Below, piece after piece: positions 1 through 20,000 of a stretch of 20,000 nucleotides of DNA. Below the pieces are notes generated by a model. The model was given only the letters and a program-made list of their open reading frames with translations, had not been told where the DNA came from and searched no databases. Position 1 is the stretch's first letter. Every line of letters begins with the position of its first letter. The stretch comes from Rhizaria sp. SCN 62-66. Its lineage: Eukaryota. Location: assembly GCA_001724265.1 (NCBI GenBank), contig MEDY01000128.1, positions 48,860-68,859 on the forward strand. Reading direction: 5' to 3'. A program made the position numbers and the translations under genes.

Positions 1-453
1 GAGGTCGACTCGCGCATCACGAGCGGCATGGACTGGCGCGACGGACTCGAGTCCCGCGCTGGCGCTGTGCTGGCTGGCGAGAACAAGAACAACGCCGCCC
101 GCGTGGCGCGCCTTGCCGCCGAGGCGCTCATGTCGGGCGCCAGCCAGCTCAAGCTGGGCTTCCTGTCGCGTCTCACCCCCAAGGACGCGGCGCGTCACAG
201 CGTGCTCAAGGTCGAGACGCATGACCCGTCCAAGTTCGCGTCGACGATGCGCATGACTGCGCGCTCCTTCTGGGCGGGCGCGATGCCGCTGCTGCAGGCC
301 GCCGTCGGGCTCGACAACGGCAAGTACATCATGATGCGCGACCCTAACCGCACCATCGTGCGCCTGTACAAGGTGCTCGACACGACGTTCGACGACGAGA
401 CGTGCGTGCTTAAGATCGACTCCGAGGCCCCCATGGCCATGAAGAGCAAGTAA
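1..453 (+). CDS. EIF3D: Eukaryotic translation initiation factor 3 subunit D, C-terminal part (5'-truncated by window edge)
   Basis: Frame is open from base 1 (EVDSRITSGMDWR...). Motifs DWRxxLESRAGAVLAGENKNN, LKLGFLSR...KD..RH.VL and GKYIMMRDPNRTIVRLY match the eIF3d C-terminus as I recall it (DWRQKLDSQRGAVIATELKNN / LKLGYVSR / GKYLILKDPNKQVIRVY). Ends TAA at 451-453, followed by AT-rich sequence. Confidence 0.93.
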   Translation, partial: EVDSRITSGMDWRDGLESRAGAVLAGENKNNAARVARLAAEALMSGASQLKLGFLSRLTPKDAARHSVLKVETHDPSKFASTMRMTARSFWAGAMPLLQAAVGLDNGKYIMMRDPNRTIVRLYKVLDTTFDDETCVLKIDSEAPMAMKSK

Positions 454-904: not shown

Positions 905-2842
905 TCATGTCATGACAGCGTTGTTGTTGCCGCTCCCCGCGTCACTCATCGGGACACCCCCGCTCGCGCCCGCATCCGCCCCCGCGCCGGCAGCAGCAGC
1001 GGCGGCGGCACCGGCGGCGGCGCCGGCCTGGTTGACGCACACGTTGTAATGCGCGGCTGCTGGCCTGCCGCAGCAGCCGCAGCAGCCGCAGCGGGGCGCG
1101 CCCGCCTCGGCGACCATGGGAGGCACACGCACGGTGTCGACGTGGCGCACGCCGCCGCGCACGTTGCGCCGGAAGCGGTCGCGCCCGGTCGCGCTGGACT
1201 GGAAGTGCGCGGCCAGCGCCGCCGCGAGCGCCAGACGCCGCCCGGGCCCCGCGGCGGGCGTCTCCAGCAGCAGGCGCAGCAGCGCGAGCGCAGTGGCCAG
1301 CGGCATGCCCGCGACGTTGACCAGATACGTCTTGAGCGACTTAACGGCGTACGAGGAGCGCACGACGACGGCGTTGCCGAAGTCGGAGCGCAGCAGCGTG
1401 GGCGCCGCGCTCTGCCCGTCGAGCAGCGGCAGGCTCGCAGCCGTCGCGAGGGCACGAGGCCCGCTGCCCGCAACGCCTGAGGCCGCGGTGCCGACTGTGG
1501 TCGAGGCGCCGGTGCGCGCGGCCATGGCCAGCTCGGCCTCGCTGACGGGCGGGAAGTCGATGCTCGCGCCCAGCTCGAGCGCGTCCTTGCGGTGCTCGTA
1601 ATAGTACTTGATGTCGCCAAGCATCTGGGCCGAGACGGCCGCGCGCTGCTGCGGCGTCTCACGGTCCTCCGGCTTGGTTTTGAGCTGCTGGTAGCGCCAC
1701 ACGGGGTCGTGCTCGCGGTCATCGAGGCACAAGTCCCGCAGCGCGCCCATGCGCTCCGCGGCCGCCTCGTCGTCCTCGACCTCGGTGTCCGAGTCGCAGC
1801 AGCCCACGTCGGGCCCGTACATGGGCGGGATCAGCGGGATCGCGGGCGTCAGCGGCGCGTCGAAAGGCAGCAGCCGCGCGCGGTCGCCTGCCGCGAGCTT
1901 AGGGATGATGCACGGCCCGAAGACCTGCGGCCCCGCCAGCGCGTCGAGCTCGTTCGTCTCGCACATGTTGCCCCACTTGGAGCGCAGGTCCATCACCGAG
2001 AACCCACCCAGCCAGGGCGCGAACCGCGCGTCGCGCTTGACGCGGCTGAAAAGCGTGTTGCCGCATTGCGCCACGGTCAGCGCGGCCGTCAGCCCGCGGT
2101 CCGCCATGTCCGTCCCGATCACCGTCACGGCGTCCGTCAGCACGGCCTCATGGTGCGGCGTCCAGTCGCTGCCCTTGAGCGCGGCCGCGCGCTTCCCGCG
2201 CAGCGACGTGAGGAACTTGCCGTGCGCCGTCTCGTCCGCGGTGAGCCGCACAGAGGACGAGCCGAGGCGGCTGTCGCCGATGACGGCCCCCGCAAGCACC
2301 GGGGCCGCCGTCGACAGGCCGCCTACAAGGGGCGCAGCGGCGGCCGCCCCAGCAGGGGTCGCGGGCGCAGCGGCCGCGGGGGCGGCGGTGGGAGCGCTGG
2401 GGGCGGCGGCGGCAGCGGCGGGACTAGAGCTGGAGTTGAGGAGGCGGGCGAGTGCCTCCGCCTCCTGCTCGGCCTCGGCACTAGACGCGGCAGCAGCTGT
2501 GGGCTCGGGCTTCGCGGCGGCGGACTCGAGCTTGACCAGGGCAGCGTCGGCCGTCGCGGTGACCGCGTCCGCGTCGTCGGTCATTGCTGCAGCAGCGGCG
2601 CTATCATTCGCAGCAGCGGAGCCGGGCGCCTAAAACTTGACAGTGACGTCGCCGTCGGCGGCGGCAGCGGGCTGAGAGGCAAGGGCGGCCTTGCGGAGGG
2701 CAAGGCGCTCCTTGAGGGAGAGCATAGCCGACGGCGCGGCAGCAGTCGCCGCGTCGGCAGTGGCAGCGGAGGTGTTGGTGTCGTCGTCGTTCATGGTGTT
2801 GTCGGCAACGGGGGAATCCGCCTTCTCGGTAGGGGGCTGCAT
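905..2842 (-). CDS. Ala-rich protein with a Myb/SANT (telobox-like) domain and C-terminal Cys/His cluster; contains an in-frame TAG at 2632-2630
   Basis: ORFs 2630..3013 and 905..2584 share a frame and are joined by TAG plus 15 sense codons (TVKF*APGSAAANDSAAAAAM). GC-rich coding style runs to ~2840. Start is ATG 2842 or ATG 2794 (aacaccATG context). Stop is TGA at 907-905. Confidence 0.75.
1964..2164 (-). other. Myb/SANT-like domain resembling the telobox class (TRF/TRB-type)
   Basis: WTPHHEAVLTDAV...RDARFAPWLGGFSVMDLRSKWGNM resembles the telobox pattern WTxEE..L..GV...D..F...L..RS.VDLKDKWRNM; divergent. Confidence 0.55.
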
Positions 2843-3448: not shown

Positions 3449-6049
3449 ATGCGTCTCACTGACGTCATTGGCTGCTCCCCGCCGACCCGCGAGGGCTTAG
3501 CTTATTATACCCCGCCCACAGCCACCACTTCCTCGTCCTCGTCTTCAGAGGCATCTTCAAACTACTCAAGCAACTCCCCGAGTGCCAGCTTCCCCTCACC
3601 CGCAGCCTCGAGCGCCGGCCCCCACGGCTCCTACGCCGCTGAGCTTGCCGCGTTTGCCGCCGCCCCGCTGCACTCGTTCCCGTGCAGCGCGCCCCGCCAC
3701 GCCGGCGCGACCACGGTCACGCTGCCGGCCCTGCTGTGCAGGCCGCTCGTGGCCGTGCCCGCGGGTGCCTCCGTGCTGTTGCTGTGCGCGACCACGCTCG
3801 ACACGCTCGCCGTGCTGCCGGGCCGCAGCGGGCACCAGATTGTCTCGCTCGCCTTCTCGCCCCTTACGCCGCTCCCCCCGCCTCAAACTATGGCCGACAC
3901 TGCTGCGGCTGCAACGGCGACAAAGCCTGAGGCAGCGGATAACGCTGCTCCCCAGCAGCAGACGCACGACGTGCTGCTGTATGCGGGCGAGTCTGGCGTT
4001 GACGCCGGCGTTCTCGTCTTCAGCCTGTCCCTGCTGGGCCCCGCCGTGGCGCTCTACGCGATGCGCCCTCCCTCGCCACAGTCCTTCGTCGCGGCGGCGG
4101 CGGCCGCGGCGGCCAGAGTCGCGCTCTCCCAGCGCGCCAGCTCCAGCAACAGCAGCACTACGACCGCCTCTGCAACTCCTGCGGGAGCGACCCTGGCCGG
4201 CGCAGTCGCCGCCGCCGTGACCGCCGTGGCACACCTAGTGGGCGACGCCGAGGCCGAGTCCGCGGCCGAGTCCGTGGCCGTGGCGGTGCTGCAGCCCGCG
4301 ACCGTGGGCACCGTCGCGCCCTCGCCCTGCGGCCGCTGGTTGCTTGCCGCCAGCAACACCGGCACGGCGCTGTGGGCCCTCGCCACCCCCACCACCACAA
4401 GCACCGCTAACGCGGGCCTGAGCACTGTGATGGAGAGCTCGAGCTCGGGCGCAAGTGTGAGCGCGAATGACGTCGATGCCGGTGCAGTTGCTGTTGCTGG
4501 GGATATGGTGACTGTGAGCAGCGCTGTTGCGTCGATGATTCACTACAATAACAACATCGCCCTCTCGCAGCCACATCATCAGCAGAGGATCAACTCAGAA
4601 CATTGCGAGAGTGAGCGAGCGTGCAAGCGCGAGCGCAAGCGGCGGCAGCGGCAGCGCCGGCGGCAGCAGCGGCAGCGGCTGCGGCAGCTTGTCTGGGACT
4701 GGGCCTCGGCCTCAGTCCTTACTCTGACCCGCCACCCCACGCTGCCGGACGCCGACACCACGCTCGCGCTCGCCGCGGCGGCCGCGCCGGCGGCTGCGGA
4801 GGCTGTCGCGGCATATCTTTCGAGCCCTGGTGATTACGCCGTGAGAAGTGTCAATACCGGTGCGAACACTGACGCCGACGGCAGTGCGCCGTGTTTGCTG
4901 CTAGCCTCGGCGGCGGCGGGGGTCGTGGCCGTGGCGGCCCGCCCGCCGCCGCCGCTGGCGCTGGCATGGTCTCAGTGCGGCAGCTATTACGCTCACAGCC
5001 ACTTGACTGGCGGGGCGAGCGTGGTATCGGTTGCCGAGGTCTCGCCGCGGGCGCTGCTGCTGGCATCCGCTGTACACGGTGACACTGAGGGCAAGAGCAC
5101 AGCAGCTTGTCAGAGCGACGATGATGTGTTAGTGGCGGTTCCCGTTGCTGTCGAGCTACTTACAAGTCTAAGTACCCTCTGGCAGAAGGCGAACCCATAC
5201 GCCCCTGGCTGCTCACAGTCACCCTTAGAGCTTCAGAAGACCCTTACAGAGGCGATCACGCGTGCCGCCGCACTTACATCTGCTGACAACGACAATAAGA
5301 ACAGGAGCAAGAGTAAGGGTGCTAAACGCCAAGATGGTGACGACGATGAGAATGAGAGCGGCACTGTGCTGTCCGCGTCGCTGCTGCTGACTCTGTCTCA
5401 CCCGAACCCCGCAAACCCGATGCCTCTCCTGCATCCTGGCACGAACAGGGCCAAAGCTCAGAGCGACAGTGGCAGTGCTAGAGCCAGTGCGAGTGCGTGT
5501 GCGAGGACGTATGACGAGGTGTCGTTGTCGCTACTGCTGTCTCTCTTGCCAGCCCTACTTCTGCCCCTGACTACTTCATACAGCAATGACCGCAATATCA
5601 GTGGTTGCGGCAGTGGTGGGCTGGCTGTGACCGTGAGCACCCCAGTCAGGCTTGGCTTGCACAAGAACATCTTGATCCCCTCTATCGCTTGGTTGCCGAC
5701 TGCAAACGCACACTCTCCCAGCAACACGGCCACTGACGTGAACAATACCAATGCGAGTGCGTGTGCGAGTGGTAAAGAGCTATGGGCGGGCCCCGAGTGC
5801 TACTTTCTCACCGCCACGGGCGTCATTCTGCTGCTGCGGCCGAAGCTTTTCCCCCCGCTGCACACCATCATCGCCGCAAGCTCGAGCCCAAGCAGCATCA
5901 CGCGCTCAGCCACCGCCCCAGCCACGGCGACCGACGCTGACACGGCGAGGGCGGCTGCGGCAGCGTTCGCCCGCGTGTTTGCAGCAGACCAGGCTGACGT
6001 GCTGTTGCCAACCATGGCGACAGGCTTTGCCGCTGCGTTCAATTCGACG
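3449..6049 (+). CDS. MAPKBP1: WDR62/MAPKBP1-like WD40 protein, exon 1
   Basis: ATG 3449 in gccaccATG Kozak context. MRLTDVIG..., LVAVPAGASVLLL, IVSLAFSP and LLYAGESG..GVLVFSL match the WDR62/MAPKBP1 N-terminus as recalled (LEKVLG / VAYPAGCVVVL / ITALAFSPDG / LVTGESGH..AVRVWDV). Ends at a phase-0 donor ACG|GTACGT. Confidence 0.8.
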
Positions 6050-6199
6050 GTACGTCATTGTAGTCATTCTCTCAGAAATACTAGGATTATTTGACTATAA
6101 TTCATTGAAACGTGCGTTTTATAATTTTGTTTGCATTATTGTTTCATCTTACTCACATCATACCTTGTATCTCCATTGCATTTTAAATCATATGCGTAG
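6050..6199 (+). other. Spliceosomal intron 1 (150 nt, phase 0)
   Basis: GTACGT...GCGTAG and AT-rich; removal joins the 3305..6094 frame to the 6308..7957 frame exactly. Confidence 0.9.
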
Positions 6200-7949
6200 A
6201 TTCTTCCCACTCTCGGTCTGCCTGCAATCACAGCCTCCACTGCTGCCGGCCTCAACTCCACCACAAACGGGCTTGCGTCAGCGACTACCACCAGCGGCAG
6301 CGTCACTTTGCGGCTGACTTGGGAGGTCGAGAAGTGGGTCAGTGCCAAGATCGACCACGGTCTCTACTTACACGCCTCGCAGCTCCCTTACACCTCATAC
6401 CCGCCCCCCTTAGTGCAGTCCCCAGCCCCCGCCGGCGGCCCGCCCCAGTCAAACGCGAGCGCGAGTGCAGGCACGGGGCCCGCGAGTGCGAGCCCTGCTG
6501 GCGCGGCGACCCCTCTGTGTCTACTCACGGTCACGGGCCGCGGCGGCCGCGTGCGCCTCTTCCATACACACACGCTGCGCCACGTCACGGCCATCACCGC
6601 GCTCCCGCCCACGGGCGCCGCCGCGGGCACCGCCGCCGCGGCCGCGGACCTGGCCGGCGCGGCGGCCGCGATCGGCGCCATCGCCACGCGCACCGCGGGC
6701 GCCGACGTGCGCTACTACGACGCCGTCGACAACACGGACCCGAGGTTCCGCCGGCTGCTGCGCAAGCACGCGCAGGAGCAGCAGGAGCTCCTGAACGGCG
6801 CGAGCGGCGGCGGCGGCGCTGCTGCTGGCGACGGTGCGGACTCGCGCGGCGCCATTGGGGGCGTGGCCCCCGTCCGCGGCGGGATCGACTACCGCAGCAG
6901 CGGCCGCTATGTGCGCCGCATGGAGCGCTACGAGGCCAAGATGCGCGCCGCCGGGTTCCCGCACGGCCCGCCGACCCGGGCCAGCTTCGTCACGCTCACG
7001 GTCCCTGCGCCAAAGCTGCCCGTGTGCGTCACACTGCGCCTGTCGGCGGACGGCAGGAGCCTGGCGATGCACTTCGCGGACCGGTCGCTGCTCACGGTTG
7101 CTTTGACGTTTCCGGACGCGGCCTACGCAAACGGCGCGAGTTCCAGCGCGACCGCAAGCGCGAATGCGAGCGGCGCGAGTCTGGGTCACCTGAGTAGTCG
7201 CGTCGGCAGCGGCAGCACGCCACGGGACGCCAAGGGCGCGGCCACCGCCAAGCCCTTTGTCCCCAGCGTCGCCTTCACCGGGTACCGGCCTGCGGTGCGC
7301 GGATCCGTGTCGGCGCTCAGGGTATCGACCGTGTACCCGCACAACCCGGCCGCGGAGTCGATGGCGGGGTTCAACTACACCGCACGGCTGCAGCAGCGCG
7401 CGGCCGCGGCGGACCACCCGCGAGCCCACGCGTACGCGGCCGAGCTGGCGGCCAAGCTCGCCGCGCAGGGCGAGCCGCTGGCGGCGCAGTGCGCGCGCGA
7501 GCAGCGCGGCACGCTGGCGGTGACCGTGGTCGGTACCGAGGGTGTGGTGCGCGTGTTCGCGCTCAGGCCCAGTGGGGCGGGGCACGCCAGCGACTGTGAG
7601 CGCAACTACTTCCCGCGCAGTAAGGAGGAGCGGGACAGCGGGACGTACGACCCGTTTCCGCTCACTAACAAGAGCAAAGCTCGCACTGGCGGTGCTGGCG
7701 GCGCGAAGCCTGAGAGCGACTGTGAGCGCAAGGTGAGCGACTGTGAGCAACTCTCACCATCACTGTTGCAGTCGCAGTCTGAGGCGCGGTTCCGCCGCAG
7801 TGTTGCGCTGGGGGACCGTGAGCAGGCCGAGCTGCGGGACCAGCAGTGGCAGCAGGTCTCGTGGGGGCCCATTGACCCGGTGCCTGTGGACCGCGTGCAC
7901 GCGCTCTTCGCGGTCCGCACCGGCATGCTCAACCAGTACTCGACGCCAG
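6200..7949 (+). CDS. MAPKBP1: WDR62/MAPKBP1-like WD40 protein, exon 2
   Basis: Open from 6200 (ILPTLG...). Motifs VEKWV, GRVRLFHTHTLRHV and LRLSADGRSLAMHFADRSLL parallel family motifs (LDKWV, GTVRLFNPSNLHFL, LTFDP...LSCVYNDHSI). Confidence 0.82.
7589..7748 (+). repeat. Dispersed direct repeat AGCGACTGTGAGC x3 (SDCE peptide)
   Basis: Copies at 7589, 7715 and 7736; the first two share 17 bp. Confidence 0.85.
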
Positions 7950-8101
7950 GTACTTAGACGCGAACACCATTTTCACACTGACACTTCTCATTCTCGATGG
8001 CTTTTTGATTTATGATGATATTTTTGTTCTGGATTATCAATGTCTTTATCTAACATTATCCCTGTGTTTTTGTTCTTTTATTTGATTTGTTATCGTTTTA
8101 G
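7950..8101 (+). other. Spliceosomal intron 2 (152 nt, phase 1)
   Basis: CAG|GTACTT...TTTTAG|G, with CTAAC branch candidate at 8050-8054 and a T-rich tract. Splicing restores the frame into ORF 8257..14454. Confidence 0.92.
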
Positions 8102-11100
8102 GTCCCGCTGCCGTCAAGGGCACTCAGGTTATCACGGCTGCCTCTGCCTCTGCATACGCCGCTGCCACGACCGATGGCAGCAAAGCAGGTGTTTCTAGTT
8201 TTCCCGTCCACGGCGCTCAACATTCAGCCGTTGCCGCTATCGACGGAAGCACTAATGTGCAGCAACTGCAGTCTGCGCCGAAGACGACGTGTCTCGTCGG
8301 CGCTGCGACGCCCGCAGTCTCGTTCTGGCAAAACAGCACTAACGCCGACGACAACGACAGTATTAGCGACATCAGTGACACCGATAGCGGCACCGATTAT
8401 GACGACGAAGACGAAGCTGACAACGCTGGCGGCGTCAGTCTTAAGCGCGAGCGCAAGTTGCTGCAGCAGCAACACAACGACAGGCAAGAGGGCAAGAGCA
8501 ACAGCAATATGAGCTTTAACTGGGACGACGAAGCGACGTACACTGACAATAACGATGAGTCAAAGAGCAACATCTCTCACAAGAATCTCACCAACAGCGC
8601 CAGCAACGCTAGTTTTGTTGGCAATGTTTTGAACTCGATGACCGCGAGCCTCGTCATGCGCGGCGTTGTCACCGGCGGCGCCCGCAGTGCCGTTGACTCC
8701 TCTACCGTGACTGCAGCGAAGCCGGCCGCTGATCACAGCGACATTGTGACGGCGATCGCCGACGGCGACATCGCCAGCGTCCACGGCGGCGTGGCGGCCG
8801 ACGCGGCGTACAACAGCTGGGACGCGCTGCAGCAAGAGGGCGCGCTGGCATGGGCGCTGTGGGGGACCGACGTCGACGCCGTGAGCACCATCACCACGAC
8901 GGTCACCACGCGCACCAACTGCACCGCCATCTCGACGTCGTCGTCCTCACACGCCACCAGCAGCAACAACACCGGTGACAGCACCCAGAAGAGCGACTCT
9001 AGCGGTGGCGGCGCGAGCGGTGCGGGCAGCCAGGTGACCGTGAGCACGCCGACGGCGACGACGACCGTGAGCGAGCGCGACGGGCTCCACGTGCGCACCA
9101 AGGTCGTCACAGGCAACGCCGCGATCGAGAACGACTGGACCACCGCGAACCTGCCCCCCATCACGGACGCGGCCGCTCCGACTCCCAACCCGGCGAGTCA
9201 CACTGGTGCCGGCCGTGGCGGTGCTGCTGCGGCGGCCACGCCCCAGCCTGGGTTTGCGCTGCCGCCGACAGCGCTCACCGCATTAGTGCCTCCCAAAGCT
9301 AAGTCGCAAAGCACCTGCAAGAACAGCAGCGCGAGTGCGAATGCGAAGGGCAGTGATGGCGTCGGCGGGTACGGTGCGGCCGCGCACTGCGTCGCCATGA
9401 TCCAGGCCCTCAGCGACGGCGGGGTCGCGGACCCTTACTCGGCGCCCACTTACTCCGGCACGGCGCCGCACGCGAAGGGCCGCGGCGCGCGCGCGCTGGC
9501 TCCGTTAACCACGCTGCCTGCGGGCGCGAGCGTGCCGCTCGACGGCTCCCGCCATAACAGCATCGCGTTTGCCCACGGCAGCGACTCTAACGCCGGCACC
9601 AGCGACACCGCGTCTGGGTTCAACAGCGGCGCGCAGAGCGTGGGCGTGACCGTGGGCAGCACGCTGGCCGGCGTCGCGGTGGGCGACACCAAGGGCGACG
9701 TGCTGGTCATGGCGGCCGTTGCGCAGAGCCTGTTGCCGGCGGCCGTGTCGGCGCCCGCGGCCGAGCACGCGGTGACCACGACCGCTGGCGCCAGGGCCGC
9801 GGCCGAGGCCGAGGCGCGCACCGCGATTGCCGTCGCTCTCGCGTATGCCCGCGACTTACTCAACAAGAACAAGAACACCAGTGCAGGCAGTACCCGTGAC
9901 ACTCACAGTCTCAACATGGCCGTGCTGGAGCTGCTCGAGCGCGAACCGATGCTGCTGACGACCGGAGTAACTGTGAGCGCCAGCGCCCGCACCGGTGTGC
10001 TCACGGTCACCTCGCCCCACTCCGGCGGCTCCACTATGACTGTGAGCCACCTGTTCTCCGGGGTAACCGTGAGCACCGCGCACGGTGCCACCAAGGCGGC
10101 CCCCATCTGCCCGTACTACAGCTATTATCGGCCGACGCTGGCTCCGACGGCGCCCGCCGCGGTACGGTTGGCGTGCCACGCGCTCGCGCACACGCTTCTG
10201 TTCCCGGTCAAGACGCTGGGCGCGCACGAGGGCGCGGTGACCGCGCTGTCGTTCTTGCCGCCGCCCCCGGCCCCGCTGCCCACGGTCACAACCACAACGA
10301 CGACGACGACTACAACGACGACGACTACAACGACGACGACGACGACGACGACGTCTGGGACGCCAGCCGGCAACCACAGCGTTAGCGGCGTCAGCGGCGT
10401 CAACGAGGGCGGGCTCGTGCCACTGCCTTTCAGCCTCGGCCGCCGCCCCTGCCCCGGGCACTTGCTGACAGCCTCGCAGGACTCGCTGGTGCACGTCATC
10501 GACACGGGCGACCTGTACGGCCCTCCGCTGACCACGCTGCAGCCCGTCGGGCCCCTCGCCACCGTCACCGCGCTGGCCCCGCTCCTACCGCCCTCGAGCG
10601 CGCCGGCCGCGCTACTCAACGCCGGCCCCCGCGTCGTGGCCACGGGGCTGGACGGCAGCGTCACTCTGTGCCACCTGCCGCCCTTCACTGCGCTGCCGCC
10701 GCCCAACAGCGGAATGGCCTACGGTGGCGCGCCCTCTGGGGCGTTCTGCCCCCCGTTCCCGCCCGCCCTGTCGCTCCACACCGCCTCCGCCTCTGCTTCT
10801 GGCACTGGCTCTGGCGCCGGCGCCGGCGCGGGTCCGGGTGTTAGTGACCGCGTGTTCGCAGTGGCGGCACATCCTCTGGGCCGACTCGCGGTCACCGCGG
10901 GCGGCGTCGCGGCGGCCGACACGTGGCAGCTGCCCACGGCCACGGCCTCGGCCGCCGCGGCGAGCACCGGCATGCCCGCCGCGGTGGTCGGCGGCAAACC
11001 CGGCCCGCGCCTGTGGCTGCCGCTGGTCTCGGTCGTTGCCCGGCACGTCCGACGCGAGAACAGGCGCGAGGCGGCTAAGGGGCTGGCGAATAAGGGGTGC

Positions 11101-12692
11101 TTAGAGACGTCGAAGGGCGGGGTTAGGAAGAGCGTTACCAGTGGCCCCGGGACTGCTGCTGGTGACGCTGAGGTCATCACTCTTGACAGCACCGATGACA
11201 GCGACTCTGGCGCTGAGTTCGAGTCTGACGATGACTCTGCTTCCGACACTGATCGTGACAGTGACGACGACGACGGCGACGATGACGACGACGACGACGA
11301 TGACGACGATGATGAGGTCGAGTGGCGCCACGACTACCACACTGCCATTATCGCGCTCAAGCTTGCGCGGGACAACGACCAGCACAATCATCAAGTCAAG
11401 CTCGACAAACTCAACAAAACTAAGGCGAGCGCGACTGAGAAGACGGCCAAGAAGACTCGCATCGGTGACGACGATTACGACGAGTTTGCGTTCGACACAA
11501 GCACTCCGAGAGTCAACGACGCCGTTGCTGAGGCCGATACGGGCGGCAGCTTGACCGTGGTCGAGAGCGAGGCCACCAAGGCCGCCGTCGCCGCGCTGGC
11601 CGCGGTGGTGGCGCAGCGGCCAGCCCGCGCCCGCCCGCAGCCGCTGCTCTGCACGCACGCGCCGTCGCCGCTACACCGTTCGCGGCCGCCGCCCAACCTC
11701 GCCTCGCTCTCACTCCTCGCCAGCGGCGCGGCAGCAGGTGGCGGCGCGGTGACGGCCGCGGCCCGCGCCGCCGCCGCTGTGGCCGTGCCGTGCTGCGCGC
11801 TCACGGTAGCGCTCGACCCGTCGGGCTCGTGCCTGGCCGCGGCGCTCAGCGACGGCCGCGTCCGCCTGCTCGACACGACGACGGGCGCGACGCTCAGCGA
11901 GGCGCCCGCCGTGCACGGGTCACACGTGTCCGCGCTCGAGTTTGCGCCCGACTGCGCCGCGCTGCTCGCGGCGGGCGCGGACGGCGTCGTGGCGCAGTGG
12001 GCCCTCCCGCGCTGGCTGCGGCTGCGGCTGCGCGCCCGGCTCGGCCCGCTGCTGCGCGACGTGCGCGCGCAGGACGGCGCCGCGCTCGTCGCGCGCGTCG
12101 CGGCCGCCGCCGGGGTCTCCACGGCCGCGCTCACGCCTGCGCCGCACGCGAACACCAGCGCTCTCACCAGCCAGTCGGGCAGTAAGTGCGCTAGCGCGAA
12201 GAACGACGAGGATGATAACGACGATTTGATCACTGTTACGCCCGCGATGGCTCGCGCTCTCTGTCTTCCTGCTCACAGCAGCAGCGGGAGCAATGCGACG
12301 ATCACCGCGACCGCGCTGCGGTCTCGCCTGCGCTCTCTGAGCGTAGCCGCGACCGACGCCGACCTGATAGCGCTGCTGCTGCGGCCGGCCAAGGCGCCGC
12401 CGATGCTGTTGGTGCCGCCGCCGCGTGAGCAGCGACTGCCGGCGATGTCGCGGTACTACAAGCAGTGCCTCGACGAGCTGATGCAGATGCAGCGGCAGCA
12501 CCAGCAGCACATGCTTGAGCTAGAGCGGGAGCAGGAGCAGGAGCAGCAGGGGCTAGAGCTGGAGCACAAACAGTCGCAGCTGGTGCTCGAGCCCGAGACT
12601 GAGCCGGACGCTGACGCTGACGCTGACGCTGAGGCAGGTGATGACGCCGAGGCTGAAGCTGCTGACGCTGTTGAAATCGACGTCGATATTGG

Positions 12693-12724
<32 letters not shown>

Positions 12725-15700
12725 AAGCGAGCGACGACAGTCTCGACGGTGCTGACGGCGAAGACAACGATAACGAAGACAAGACCAACACTGGTACCAA
12801 CGGCGTCGCAGTCGACGATGATGATGTCGATATCGACATCTCTTTGTCTGACACTGGCAACGCCAGCAAGGACAGTGTCGCCGTCGATAACAGCAAGGCA
12901 ACTGGCTTCGTTCTTCGTCTCGCTGGTGTCAGCGCTCATGACCAGAGTGTAAGTACTCCGAGCAGGAATCTAAGTACCCCCGGCTCTGCCGTGAGCGGCC
13001 GCAAACCCTCCAGGTGGGCTGCCAACGCGGCGGGACAAGGCGGCGTCCCACTGTTTATTCCGCGCATCAACAACGCCGCTCTGTCCAGCACTTTCACGAA
13101 CAACGACACTGACAACGACAACGATGACAACGGGGTTAGTGGCAGCACGAGCCTGAAGTCTGACGTTGTCGTTAACGCGAAGAAGGCTGACGATAAGAGT
13201 GCGGTTTACAGCGTGAAGTCTGGTAAGACTGCACTGACTGCTGATGCTGATGCGAAGGACGACGCTGTTGTCAGCGGTGACAACGATCTTGGCTACGGAG
13301 ACCCGACGCAGCAGTACAACAACAAGTACACCAACAAGTTTGCGAACATCAAGCTGCACAATAACACCAGCAGCAAGAATAGCACGATCGATAAACACGC
13401 CGACGCCGACGCCGCCGATGACGACGATGATGGCGCGAGCTCGAGCACGAGCGCGTCCTTCCACCTCCGCATCGCTGACGCTGACGACGACGACGATGAC
13501 GGCGACTACGACAACGACGGCGACGATGACGCCCGCGGTCACTTGCGCAGCGGCGGCGTGGCGCGGGTTGGCACGGGCAGGCGCAGAGTCACCAGCGCGT
13601 CGCGACTGCAACGGGCCCCCGTCACCACCACGGCGTCCGCCGCGACCGCAGCCGCAGCCAGTGCGAGTGCGCTGAACAGCAACGCCAGTAGCGTGGACTC
13701 CAGTGGCGCCAGTGCCCGCGTCGTCAACAGCGCCGGCTCTGCTTCGACGACGAGCTCTCGCGACGCCTCCGCCGACGGCGGTGTCAAGCAGAGCGGCCTG
13801 ACTGCGCGGCGGCAGAAGCCCGTGTTGTTCCGCATGGAGTCGCCACTGGCCTCGGCCGCGACGCTGCGCCGCGCGGACCTGGGGCTGCAGCAGGCGCTGG
13901 CCGAGTACAACACCGCCATCACGACCGGCGCTGCGGCGGGCGGGAAATCGGGCCATATCCCCGCCGCGCCTACCGCTGCTGTCGGCGCCGCCCAGCCCGA
14001 CCCTCAGACTCAGCCCGCGCTTGGTAGCGCCGCTGCCGCTAACGCCGCTACCGCTAACGCCGCCGCTGCCGTGAGCGCCTTCGGCAGCGTCGTCAGCGTG
14101 GGCGGCGCCGCCGTGGTGCTGGCGCGGCAGCCGTCTCGTCGCAGCGCGCTGCGCCGCATTGGCTCCAGCCGCGCCGCCACGGGGCCGGTCGTCGCGACTG
14201 CGGCCGATAGCACGGCTGCGACTCAAGCGTTGGCCGCTGCGGCCACCGCGACTGAGGCGCCCAGTAGGACTGAGCCAGCGGCTGCGGCTGCGGCCGCGGC
14301 TGAGGCGGCTCCTGTGGCTCCTGTGGCTGCGGCTGCAGGCATGCCTGGGCTCAAGCGGCAGCCGTCGTTGCGCTCGTCATTCAGTGCTAGTTTCTACAAC
14401 AATCATAACGGCAGTAGTGCACTGAGCAGTTTCAACGCAAACGGAAGCAGCTAGAGCAGCTTTAACACACATAACAACAGCAGCAACACTGCTAGCGATA
14501 CTACGGATTCTTCTGCTACTACGACGGACTCCGCCACTGCAGCCGATGTCGCTGCTGTTGACGATGCTGCTGCGGGTGCTACCCCCGCTGTCGCGCTTGA
14601 TAGCGCTGGCACTGAGTCGAACACTGAGACAAAGGATGCTGATACTGCTGCTGCGACCACAGCGGCTGCGGACGAGATCGAGACGGAGACGAAGACTGAT
14701 GCCCAGACCACTCCCGCGCCCGCGACGGTGACTGCCCCCACGCGCACTGTGCTCAACAGCGCGATCGGTGGCGACAGCAGTGACAGCGACAGCGAACCCA
14801 CCGGCGTCGACCTCAGCAGTCTCATGGCTGCTCGCAACACGGGAGAGAGGAGCGATGCTGAGGCCGGCAGCAGCGACAGCGTTGGCGCCACAGATAAACC
14901 CGAGCCGACGACTGTTGTCATTGACGAAATCAACGACTACAAGAACGCCAACAACGTTCCCACCGGCGACGACATGGACGTCGAGGACGACTACAGCGAG
15001 TTCGAAGAGGAGGCCCTCGAGGGTCCTACGCCGGCCATCACTCCCTCGGCCTCCAACGCCAGCGGTCACCCTCATGGTGCGGTGACACCGCGGAAGCAGC
15101 AGAAACACGCTGCGACGCCCACCGCCGCGCACGGCCGCGGGAGCAGCAGCGCGGCGCACCTCAGAGGCGGCGGCGGCAGCGACAAGTTGGGTGTGCCGCC
15201 GGCGCAGAGTCCTGCCCACGGGCACTCTGCCCAGCACTCTGCTCACGGTCAGTTGAGCCCTGGCAGAGCTGCTAGACGCCAACTTGTCTTTGCTGCGACA
15301 GCGACAGCATCACCGCCTCGAAGCAACACCAGTGACGACGTGAACGACAGTGCGAAGGATAGCAACGCCGTCGCTATGACCGGCTCAAGCACTGCATCTG
15401 CGGCTGCGAGTTTGACTGGGAAGGAGAGTGCCGTGCGCCGCAGCGTTGTCACGCCGCTGCAAGGCACGCGCACTGTCGTTGTCGACTCGATGTTTCCCCC
15501 GCTGGCGCAGTCGCAGTCGCTCTCACAGTCGTTTACGCAATCGCAGCTTTCGCAGTCTCAGTCGTCGATGTCGCAGTCCCAGTCCCAGCTGCAGTCTTTG
15601 TTACAACAACAGCAAGAACAGCAGCTGCTGCTGCTCCAGTCACAACTGTCGCCCGCCGTCACTAGTGCGACCAGCGATGTAACGACTGCCGCTGCTCCTG

Positions 15701-17316
15701 CTGCCGAAAGTGCTGTTAACACTGCTGTTGGTGTTGGGGCTGGAGCTGCAGCGGGCTTGAACACCAACGCTGCTGCCAGCGGCGCCGTTGTGGTTCCTCG
15801 CTTGCCTCTCTCGCCCATCAAGCTCCAGCAACAGCAACTGCAGCAACAGCTGTTACAGCCAGCGCAGTTGCCCCGCAACAGGCCACTTTCTTCACAGCCG
15901 CAGTTCCAGCAACAGCAGCCACAACATCAGACCCAGACCGGCTTCGTGGTGACTGCAAGCCCCAGCTCCCGCCCCCGCAACTCCCCCGCTCACGGCCACT
16001 TCCTCCCAGCCCACGGTCAGTCCCCCGCCCACGGTCAGTCCCCCGCCCACGGTCAGTCCCCCGCCCACGGTCACTTCGCTCGCGGCCTCAGCGCCGTCAG
16101 CAGCCCGAGCTTCGGACGCCAGCCGACTCTGCGCCACTCGGCCAGCCTGAGCAGCACCGGCGCGAGCGGCGGGGGCGTGCCGGTGACCGCGCACGAGGCC
16201 GCGCTGACCGCGCTACAGGCCTCGCTTAAGGCCGCGCTAGACCTGCTCGCCGTCGCCGAGGCCGAGGCTGAGGCTGAGGCCGAGGCCGAGGCTGAGCAGC
16301 AGGAGCAGCAGCCGGACCCGGATGGCTTGGACGCGAACGACAGCTTTGCCAACGACGCCAGCGCGAGCCACGACGGGGGCGACGTGTTTGACCTCCGCAC
16401 CCGCGACGTGGGCCTCACAGGTCGCCCTCTCAGCACCCGGCACAGCGGCGGGCCCGCGGTGCAGCGGTCCGCAAGCGTCTCCGGGCTGGGCAGCCCCTCG
16501 GACGGGCCGACCGCCCCCGCGCTCAGCGCGCGCGAGCGGCTCGCGGCCGTCACGTCGCTCTACCAGGACACGTTCGCGCTGGTCCAGCAAGCGGTCACGG
16601 TCGCGACGGACAAGACGGAGCGCATCATGGTGCTGACCGCGCGCGGCAGCGGCAGCGGCAGCGACAGCAGCCGTGGCAACGGCAAGCGGTTCACCTACTC
16701 GAGTACGAGCAACACGAGCGCGCGCATCACTGGTGGCTTTGATGGCACGACTGCAACCGGCGGTGGCGCCGCTGTCGGTGGTGTTGCACCTCGTCCTGTG
16801 ATTGTGAACGCGAGTCCTCGCATCAGTCCAACAGGCGGCTTACCTTCGTCAGCAGGAGACCCGCATTCTGGTGTTGAGGCGAGTCCCCGCGTGCAATATC
16901 AGGGGCTGAGCGAGATGTTACGCCGCAGCAACAGTGTCACAAATACCAACAACAGTAAGCTACACGAGCTGAACATCAGCGAGTCTGGTGATTTTGCTGT
17001 CAATAATCCTGATGCTGCACCGAATCACACCACTAGTGCACGCTATACCGCTTTTAACGCTGCCGGTAGCGGTGACTTTGCGGGCGAGTTCGGCGCGGTT
17101 TATACTGGCGATTCAGGTGCGCAGAATGTGGACATCGATCCGATGGACGCATTGACAAGCCGCATTGCAGACATGGTGGCGGCCAAGCTTCAAGCACGAC
17201 AACTAAATGGCAGCAATATTACTACTCCGCTGTCAAGCACCCGAAACAGCGCGGGGCCTAACAACAGTGCGTTGATTGGTCACTCGAATCAGACCCCAAA
17301 TCAAAATCAAGGTTAA
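8102..17316 (+). CDS. MAPKBP1: WDR62/MAPKBP1-like WD40 protein, exon 3 (9.2 kb; in-frame TAG at 14452-14454)
   Basis: Contains VAVGDTKGDVLV, AHEGAVTALSF, LLTASQDSLVHVID and ALDPSGSCLAAALSDGRVRLLD...VSALEFAPDCAALLAAGADGVVAQWALP (family: SGDRMG, AHDSEILCL, LASASRDRLIHVLD, DPSGIYIATSCSDK...[20 protein letters not shown]), plus PSRWA. The frame continues 91 sense codons past the TAG into ORF 14728..17316 and ends TAA where AT-rich DNA begins. Spliced CDS is 13,566 nt (~4,521 aa). Confidence 0.8.
10288..10353 (+). repeat. Coding trinucleotide repeat (ACN)22, poly-Thr
   Basis: Mostly ACG with ACT/ACA interruptions; lies between two WD40 motifs. Confidence 0.95.
11263..11313 (+). repeat. Coding (GAY)n poly-Asp tract
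   Basis: GAC/GAT run with a single GGC interruption. Confidence 0.9.
12694..12723 (+). repeat. Perfect (GCT)10 poly-Ala microsatellite
   Basis: Directly visible. Confidence 0.95.
15982..16077 (+). repeat. 18-bp coding minisatellite (PAHGQS)n
   Basis: CCCGCCCACGGTCAGTCC-type units x3 flanked by PAHGHF variants; degenerate copies also at ~15205-15260. Confidence 0.92.
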
Positions 17317-18525
17317 GTGGCTGTTTGCAAAGGGTGATTATGATGCGGTTTATTAACATTGATTAAATATAATCCTACGTCAGAGAAGGTCTACTTGTTA
17401 CGTTAGAAATTTGAATAGTGTTTTAGAATATTTACTCTGGGAGCATCTGTAATACATATGAGCTTACATGTTTTCCTTCGTGAAGATGACAGAGTGATGA
17501 GTGATGTCTAATGATGTGGATATTACTCAGTATCATCTTCATATAATTTTTATTTCATCGTGTCACACGATGATACAATTAGCTTACGATGATACATGTA
17601 GCTCAAATCAACGTTCATCGTGTCAAAGTAGGTTCAAAATAGCATCGATATTGCGACTGTCTGGGCTGTATAATTGCGAGCGAATGCGACTTTTCCCCGT
17701 CGCACTCACTCAGCTTGAATTAACGGTCCCAGGCAGGCAGGTGATGATGCAAAGCGCTCAATTGGTATCTTAATTAGGTGACATGATCGTCTACATTCAT
17801 TTCTGTCACCACGAACACTCTTTGCTGTGCTGGCGATCTACATTTGACAAGAGTGTTGAAACCGCACAAAACCCTAATTACATATTTGTAAAAAGCTATG
17901 GGCAACCAGTCAAACCCGTTAACATTCCATTAGGGGGCGTTATGTAGAAGGTCGGGGCGTTGTGTATAAAATACATAATTATACATAATTGATACAAGAT
18001 AATGGCCATCTACATGATGAAACAGCTATAAAATTGCAATTTTACGATTGAATCCGCTTGTTCATCTGCATACATGAAAACGGACATTTCCGTTATCGTG
18101 CGGTTGTCTTGTGGGGCCTTTTCCTGTTGCTGCCCGGTGTGTCATAATAATTTTCGATATCTTCACTATACATCATACTTAATCCATAAACACTATCACC
18201 ACACAAAATCGCCGTCGTGTTTGTGCGCAAATGGTTAGCAATCTCACATTGTAGTTGCGCACTCTTGACACCCCCGTCCCTTCTGTTGGGGTTCTCAAAA
18301 TATCACAAGTGACTGGTGGTGATGTCATTTCGGAAGCGTCATCGATGAGTGCATGTAGTGGACTATGGCAACGCTAGATTGACAAATGTGACGACTGACA
18401 TCGTAGACTTATTAGTTTCATACGTATTTATTCAACGTAATATCCCACAGCTGCGCTAATTCCTTCCTGCTTCCCTTCTAATTCTCAAGATTTCCAGAAG
18501 GTTCCTTGGCACCGCTCTTGCCACA

Positions 18526-18943
18526 ATGAACCCCTCAACGTCGCTCTCCGCTGAGCTGCAGTCGTCTGATAGCGAACGACTAGGCCTTGCCGCAGACATG
18601 CCCCGCGCATCTTCGCTTGCAAGTCCCAGCTGCTCCGCCGTCCCTCGCCCCCATTTTGGCTCGGTCGACGCCCTTCGCACCGACCGTGACCGTCGGGCGT
18701 CCGCTGTTGCCGTCGACGTCTCTCCGAGTCCTTATCTCCTCGCCTCTAAGCCCCTTCCTATAGCAGACCTCCTTGCCGCCTCGGAGGTCTTTCCCGCACT
18801 GGCTCGCATTGCTGCGGATGATGAGTTGTCGCCCGACGCTCATTCTATCGGCCAGGAAACCTATTCAGATTCGGACAGCTGGGCCTCCGCGACTGGTGGG
18901 GGGAGGGGCATTGCCGCGATACAGCAGCCTGCTAGCACGAGTC
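18526..18943 (+). CDS. Hypothetical coiled-coil protein, exon 1 (Ser/Ala-rich)
   Basis: gccacaATG start, GC rise relative to the spacer, ends at a phase-1 donor C|GTACGT. Confidence 0.7.
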
Positions 18944-19116
18944 GTACGTTATTGTTCGCATTTACATGTTGACTTGCGATGACCGAATCGTCAAATAAAT
19001 AATCAAAGTGACCTGCTATTTTATAACATTTTTTTCTTCAAAGTTACCGTTCTAACTTAGTACTTGTACCTCACCATGTTTGATCTCGCTTGATTTTCTC
19101 CTTCTCTCTTTCATAG
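18944..19116 (+). other. Spliceosomal intron (173 nt, phase 1)
   Basis: GTACGT donor, CTAAC at 19052-19056 and a strong pyrimidine tract TTTTCTCCTTCTCTCTTTCATAG; the phase matches the long downstream frame. Confidence 0.85.
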
Positions 19117-20000
19117 AAATCAACAGAGATCGCGCGTAGCATCAAGAACGTATTGCGACTATTCAGAAGAAAATAGCCAGGGCGAGGTTGCACGTCGCAC
19201 ATCATGAAAGGTAGCTCGAAGTGGCTGATTGCAATCTTCTCTCGACCATTACGACGCTAACACCCCTGGACACGGAAGTTGAACGCGGCCGCGTTGCTGC
19301 TAAGAAGGCGGATGCTGAGCGAGAACTGGCATCCGCTCAAGCTAAGCTTGACAAGGCTAGGGCTGCGTTGGCGAAGGACAGGGCTGATTTGGCAATGGAA
19401 GAAGCTGAACATAAGATGGATGTCGCTAAAGCTCGAGTTGAGGCAAGCAAAGCAAAGCTCGACAAGACATCTAAGTCTGACATTGCGTATGCCGCAGCCA
19501 AAGCCCGGCACAAGACTGACGAAGTCGAGCTCGAAGTGGCCGAGAAGAAGCACTCACTAGCGCAGGCCAAGCACAATGAGGCGGATGCCAGGCTCAAAGT
19601 GGCTGATGCTGAACTCGGCGTTTCTCAAGCTAAATTAACATCTTCGAGCACCCTTGACGGGTCAGCACAAAAAGTTATCGGCGCGGCCGAGAGCAAATTG
19701 TTGGGTGCCAATGAGATGCTTATGTTGGCTAGAAGCGAACAAGGAAAGGCGGCCGGAAATCTAAATGCGGCTGAGACAAAGCTGCATGATGCGAAGGTGC
19801 AACTGAAGAAAACTAATAATGACACATCGCAAACACTTCTGACTCAAGCTCAAGCTAACCTTGCGGCGTTTGTCAAGGGTCAACCACAGATGTCGTGGAA
19901 CCAAGATACGTCCAAAGACTTTATCATTCTGGAGGCACCCTCGATCTTAGACAGTGGTGGCCACGTGGCGCGCTTTCCGTTCAGTGGCAAAGGTCTTGAT
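19117..20000 (+). CDS. Hypothetical coiled-coil protein, exon 2 (3'-truncated; in-frame TAGs at 19137 and 19212); absent from the ORF track
   Basis: My translation: QINRDRA*HQERIATIQKKIARARLHVAHHER*LEVADCNLL...ERELASAQAKLDKARAALAKDRADLAMEEAEHKMDVAKARVEASKAKL...RFPFSGKGLD. Ala/Lys/Glu heptad pattern; no TAA/TGA in frame to the window end. Confidence 0.78.

Follow-up and report, generated by a model that had tools for sequence, protein, structure and literature searches.

We analysed a 20,000-nt stretch of DNA from Rhizaria sp. SCN 62-66 (assembly GCA_001724265.1, contig MEDY01000128.1, positions 48,860–68,859, forward strand), referred to here as the window, which carries a giant gene for a WD40-containing protein with a TAG codon lying in frame at 14452–14454. 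The window is eukaryotic, and its coding stretches have a G+C content (GC) of ~65–78% (~70% overall), interrupted by short segments at 30–45% GC. Coding potential was scored as a codon-usage log-likelihood in forty-codon windows, with training on other parts of the window. The giant gene, on the forward strand, begins with exon 1 (3449..6049), an open reading frame (ORF) whose start codon is predicted and which joins in frame to exon 2 (6200..7949). The latter, defined by its coding score and its in-frame joins, is followed by exon 3 (8102..17316), which holds both the WD40 match and the TAG and ends with TAA. The intervening segments at 6050..6199 (150 nt, GC 0.31, GTACGT...GCGTAG) and 7950..8101 (152 nt, GC 0.32, GTACTT...TTTTAG), both bordered by GT and AG, look like introns of one gene. 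Left unspliced, the frame runs into stop codons inside both segments; spliced, it is a single open frame, and the coding score is back at ~6200 without an ATG. The TAG at 7955–7957, the apparent end of the middle ORF, would thus be intronic, lying within the second predicted intron. The spliced coding sequence (CDS) comprises 13,566 nt and 4,521 codons and ends with TAA, its only internal stop being the TAG at 14452–14454, so that three apparent ORFs in the window would represent a single 4,521-codon gene.

The TAG is codon 3568 of this CDS, and the coding score is positive on both sides of it. In all 22 forty-codon windows placed between 13897 and 15157, scores were +6.9 to +41.9 bits in the gene frame and negative in the other two. 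As the preliminary description had claimed, 91 sense codons (14455–14727) lead in frame from the TAG into a listed ORF of 862 codons (14728..17316); altogether, 953 codons follow the TAG up to the TAA at 17316 with no other stop and no frameshift. The restart of the listed ORF at a GTG (14728) is an ORF-calling artefact. The standard-code ORF list, which gives 8257..14454 and 14728..17316 as two entries, would agree with the TAG being a true terminator and 14455–17316 a separate gene. We find such an arrangement scarcely credible, as both ORFs share one frame, the 91 stop-free codons that connect them carry a full coding score, the first in-frame ATG lies 124 codons 3' of the TAG, and a peptide repeat straddles the codon. 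Moreover, there is no AT-rich gap of the kind seen after real stops: the GC of the next 150 nt is 0.56 after this TAG and 0.72 after a second in-frame TAG described below, compared with 0.33–0.43 after the three real stops in the window.

An intron over the TAG was likewise rejected, because no GT..AG pair spanning it is intron-like. Of the 70 frame-preserving pairs across the codon, four start with GTA and none with the GTAC found at the 5' site of the predicted introns; the GC minimum of these pairs is 0.44, against 0.31–0.32 for the predicted introns. In 100-nt windows, GC near the TAG does not fall below 0.47. The earlier proposal that the regions on either side of the TAG form one exon with no AT-rich spacer therefore stands, in that the TAG is internal to a single exon with GC of at least 0.47; the accompanying notion that an AT-rich spacer marks a gene boundary was half right, since two such spacers look like introns of the same gene. 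A long-standing pseudogene was also considered and fits poorly with the intact downstream coding sequence.

The peptide repeat around the TAG consists of a first unit, NGSSALSSFN (14407..14436, forward strand; AAC GGC AGT AGT GCA CTG AGC AGT TTC AAC, 10 codons), and a second unit, NGSS-TAG-SSFN (14440..14466, forward strand; AAC GGA AGC AGC TAG AGC AGC TTT AAC, 9 codons). Both units are in the same frame, that of ORF 8257..14454, at a spacing of 33 nt and with one GCA codon between them; the letters of 14407–14466 and the two peptides are exactly as first described. A third, degenerate unit, FNTHNNSSNTAS, follows at 14461..14496 on the same strand and is tied to the others by direct repeats D1 (spacing 66) and D2 (spacing 30), its codon register being our own reading; it carries AAC ACT (Asn-Thr) where the first unit has Ala-Leu. 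The repeat exceeds chance: when the local 60 residues were shuffled 20,000 times with their composition preserved, a split 4+4-residue repeat arose in 9 cases. Tandem Repeats Finder did not report the 33-nt repeat, and a MAFFT alignment of the three units, which is not codon-aware, was not used.

Across the eight flanking codons shared by the first two units, 5 of 24 nt differ, and all five differences are synonymous and at third positions; two of them fall within the four codons 3' of the TAG. By our own arithmetic, the chance that all five differences fall among the eight third positions in the 24 sites is 56/42504, or ~0.0013. It is thus the peptide and not the DNA that is the conserved entity in the repeat, and this purely synonymous divergence means protein-level selection on both flanks of the UAG. 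Given its position inside one exon and its constrained flanks, the TAG at 14452–14454 is very likely decoded or read through, as judged from the sequence.

As for the residue inserted, the preliminary description had placed the TAG in a leucine (CTG) column and taken the repeat as a hint that UAG means Leu. This inference fails: the units are 10 and 9 codons long, so the TAG faces the GCA-CTG pair, and the one-codon gap pairs it equally well with Ala or Leu. In one of the two gap placements the TAG is opposite CTG directly before SSFN, and in the other it is opposite GCA; the TAG shares one of three bases with CTG and none with GCA. The Asn-Thr of the third unit at the same place indicates that this repeat column is not conserved. 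Mutational access likewise speaks against Leu, as CTG is two substitutions away from TAG, and TTG, the only Leu codon at one step, occurs 36 times in the training CDS. Other one-step precursors of TAG are CAG (141 uses), GAG (122), AAG (93), TCG (90), TAC/TAT (68) and TGG (28). The second in-frame TAG gives no residue information: neither UAG falls in an alignable conserved column, and the second site pairs with nothing informative in its one clear orthologue, P0008. We would rank Gln first, followed by Leu, Glu and Tyr, as an inference from UAG-only precedents (Glu also being a nuclear one), mutational access and the near-cognate decoding of UAG; the repeat itself does not tell the residue. 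Nuclear precedents for UAG as Leu do exist, namely the rhizarian exLh (PMC5304391) and three phyllopharyngean ciliate genomes (PMC11687900), as reported. All in all, a specific assignment of UAG to leucine by a tRNA-Leu(CUA), which would be a sub-case of UAG being decoded, seems to us distinctly unlikely.

We found the second in-frame TAG on the minus strand at 2632..2630, as codon 71 of a neighbouring gene (context KF-TAG-AP). Its 645-codon CDS (905..2842, minus strand) ends with TGA and has no Pfam match; the ATG at 2842 was taken as the start, the coding score being positive from ~2893. Between 2893 and 2173, each of the 13 windows scored +20.9 to +41.8 bits, before this TAG as well as after it. 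In the protein collection, the gene is split at the TAG into P0010 (70 aa, ending at the TAG) and P0007 (559 aa, from the next ATG). The sole clear orthologue, P0008 (500 aa, 46–47% identical), has an N-terminal motif that matches the residues encoded upstream of the TAG, with 12 of 15 residues identical; among 2,000 shuffles, none reached this identity and 17 reached the segment score. With HMMER, query residues 40–428 align to residues 9–380 of P0008 in one continuous alignment across the TAG. The protein belongs to a very small family with conserved motifs that include PPMYGPD.G.CDSDTEVED and KSLKTYL. A search of 1.84 billion representatives gave six matches at E ≤ 0.001, its own pieces P0007 and P0010 included, and no relatives of P0007 were found in bacterial and archaeal genome contigs. 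An 18-nt in-frame GT..AG segment (GTCACT...TTTTAG, 2647–2630, minus strand) ends exactly at the second TAG; this is probably a coincidence, and the segment would excise the TAG if micro-introns occur here. A longer intron at this site was rejected, as none of 41 candidate spanning pairs resembles the predicted introns of 150 and 152 nt.

In the three CDSs defined in the window (5,316 codons in total), TAG is found in frame twice (0.04%), TAA and TGA never. The three genes, in turn, end with TAA (two) or TGA (one) and none with TAG, a tally that comes from three genes only. Both in-frame UAGs lie inside otherwise intact genes, with coding signal on either side. At such a frequency, UAG is more readily seen as a codon that is rare, recent or inefficiently read than as one whose reassignment is settled. 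When TAG is read through, the strand opposite the giant gene (9856–13956, minus strand) shows antisense ORFs as long as 678 codons, and several contain TAG; they are by-products of high GC and not genes, and raw ORF lists therefore overstate the counts of in-frame TAG.

Taken together, these observations make it probable that the TAG at 14452–14454 is an internal codon of one three-exon gene and that UAG serves here as a rare sense or readthrough codon, with UAA and UGA as terminators. The ribosome would insert an amino acid at this UAG and continue for 953 codons to the TAA at 17316, by way of either a dedicated transfer RNA, tRNA(CUA), or a tolerated near-cognate readthrough. The UAG at 2632–2630 in the minus-strand gene would be handled likewise.

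Several results weigh against this reading of UAG as a rare sense or readthrough codon. Wide use as a sense codon, expected of an established reassignment, is not seen, and the only two in-frame UAG sites both lie in low-complexity, poorly conserved segments. TAG makes up 66% of the single-step nonsense opportunity under this codon usage, so that two random nonsense changes would both give TAG 44% of the time and the TAG-only pattern is not diagnostic. No tRNA genes and no Rfam matches were found within the 20-kb window. The giant protein has no relatives that extend across its TAG: of 7,999 candidates scored, one matched at E ≤ 0.001, and this was a generic WD40 match. In composition-adjusted BLASTP, the match of the N-terminal motif to P0008 is not significant (E=45 for the part reported). 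The split of the minus-strand gene into P0010 and P0007 may also be listed here, but it shows only standard-code gene calling. As for readthrough, a favourable sequence context was found at neither site, the bases after the two TAGs being A (AGCAGC) and G (GCGCCC). Purines at position +4 favour termination. A stimulatory RNA structure or hairpin was not detected at either TAG when 81-nt folds were compared with shuffles (z=0.10 and 0.83).

The same rarity of UAG would suit TAGs that are nonsense alleles or that come from errors in assembly or base calling. In that case, the giant protein would end at residue 3,567 as a truncated product, and the ATG at 2584 would be the start of the minus-strand gene, as it is for P0007. 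TAG is the commonest nonsense product to be expected, stored protein calls take it as a stop, and a truncation or restart might be tolerated in the disordered regions in which both sites lie. Yet, independent and very recent changes would be needed in two of three defined genes within 20 kb. Downstream of the first TAG, 953 codons have retained a full coding signal with neither stop nor frameshift, the second gene has its conserved N-terminal motif upstream of its TAG, and the long ORFs are free of the frameshift errors expected of a poor assembly. We therefore regard this explanation as unlikely.

We rate as highly improbable that UAG is removed or changed in the RNA, either through A-to-I editing, which would turn UAG into UGG (Trp), or by splicing of an in-frame micro-intron. 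Fungal A-to-I editing, as described in PMC11156358 and PMC4817773, prefers U at position -1 and often hits UAG and UAA stops, and the 18-nt GT..AG segment at the second TAG could serve as a micro-intron. However, neither TAG lies in an outstanding hairpin, none of the 70 and 41 spanning pairs at the two sites resembles the predicted introns, and the source is no well-sampled ascomycete, given the few matches of the 645-residue protein and the single relative of a further protein, eIF3d, presented below.

If UAG is indeed a rare sense or readthrough codon, standard-code gene calls would split or truncate genes at UAG, as exemplified by P0010 and P0007. Either way, the practical point is that standard-code annotation of this genome cuts genes at UAG. 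We consider it a fair conjecture, although one we would not yet favour over its opposite, that the window comes from a GC-rich, intron-poor eukaryote whose nuclear code, hitherto undescribed, has UAA and UGA as stops and employs UAG, though rarely, as a sense codon, possibly for Leu. A lineage whose UAG hardly ever occurs in frame, and then only in unconstrained segments, and in which no gene is seen to end with it would give the picture of stop-codon capture at an early or ambiguous stage. UAG-only nuclear codes are few, and each new case informs how a stop codon gets captured.

The giant gene encodes a largely disordered, Ala-, Ser- and Thr-rich protein with long homopolymer runs. The Pfam WD40 family (PF00400) scores 31.5 bits (cutoff 27) on the segment 8104–14451 and 29.1 bits on P0001; only one WD40 repeat region was found in the giant protein, and named beta-propeller families remained below their cutoffs. 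Coding repeats are located at 10288–10353, 11278–11313, 12694–12723 and 15982–16073 and include 22 consecutive Thr codons, 12 Asp codons and 10 Ala codons (each of them GCT), as well as an SPAHGQ repeat, whose 18-nt unit is present about five times. Downstream of the gene there is a segment of ~2 kb (17317–19200) with 31–49% GC, far longer than the other non-coding gaps; in none of its frames did the window codon model give a convincing coding signal. It is followed by an open-ended ORF (19395–20000, GC ~0.48–0.55) with a positive coding score in its frame; its Lys/Ala/Glu-rich, coiled-coil-like product is without significant Pfam match.

At the other end of the window, positions 1..453 of the forward strand hold the 3' end of a gene for eIF3 subunit D (eIF3d), ending with TAA and recognized by Pfam eIF-3_zeta (E=1.5e-36) and by Protein Data Bank (PDB) eIF3d chains (E ~1e-28 to 1e-29). 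Chain 7ase ("subunit 7-like protein, putative") matches much less well (E=3e-6). The best-matching chains are metazoan, and 7ase is trypanosomatid. A single relative of the eIF3d fragment was found, at 34% identity, and the Atlas gave generic eIF3d clusters only; the lineage appears to be poorly sampled. The bulk statistics of the window are similar to those of a heterotrophic flagellate genome with ~70% GC and fewer than two introns per gene (PMC6972860), a source whose available text holds nothing on UAG.

Among known systems, the rhizarian exLh, in which UAG encodes Leu (Panek et al. 2017, PMC5304391), is like the window in that UAG is the sole in-frame stop, and tRNA(CUA) is the predicted mechanism there. 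Its 384 in-frame UAGs in 71 genes are concentrated at conserved Leu columns, as reported; unlike this, the window has two in 5,316 codons, in disordered segments devoid of a Leu signal, a difference that also speaks against reassignment here. In phyllopharyngean ciliates (McGowan et al. 2024, PMC11687900), UAG is read as Leu or Gln, and three genomes are described with predicted Leu suppressor tRNAs; these came to light when genomes that had been annotated with a different code were mined. As would hold for the window, UAG alone is reassigned and UAA is kept as a stop. Yet, these ciliates show widespread UAG and suppressor tRNAs, whereas the window is from a GC-rich non-ciliate with sparse UAG. 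Iotanema spirale, with UAG as Gln and UAA as the dominant stop (PMC5304391), is another UAG-only change outside ciliates, and Gln is our leading guess for the window as well. The assignment in I. spirale, however, rests on many conserved columns with a conditional probability of ~1, as given in that source, and the window offers none.

A different kind of parallel is provided by Amoebophrya sp. ex Karlodinium veneficum, for which in-frame stops are reported in about half of the gene models beside normal termination, and whose gene models with in-frame stops could not be predicted by a standard-code annotator (PMC12005148). Sparse in-frame UAG is seen in the window too, none of whose three genes ends with it; in contrast to the window, with UAG only and a coding GC of ~70%, Amoebophrya uses all three stop codons in an AT-rich genome. 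In filamentous ascomycetes, restorative A-to-I editing of UAG to UGG allows pseudogene-like genes with premature UAG to encode full-length proteins (PMC4817773, PMC11156358). This system differs from the window in that, as described, it requires hairpin-loop sites, which are not seen at the window TAGs, and is known from that fungal group only. Our survey of the literature on in-frame UAG codes in GC-rich non-ciliates returned known cases only, which does not show that the present case is unpublished. By analogy, we would liken the window to the UAG-only nuclear reassignments of exLh, Iotanema and the phyllopharyngean ciliates, while its sparse use of UAG resembles that of Amoebophrya sp. ex K. 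veneficum.

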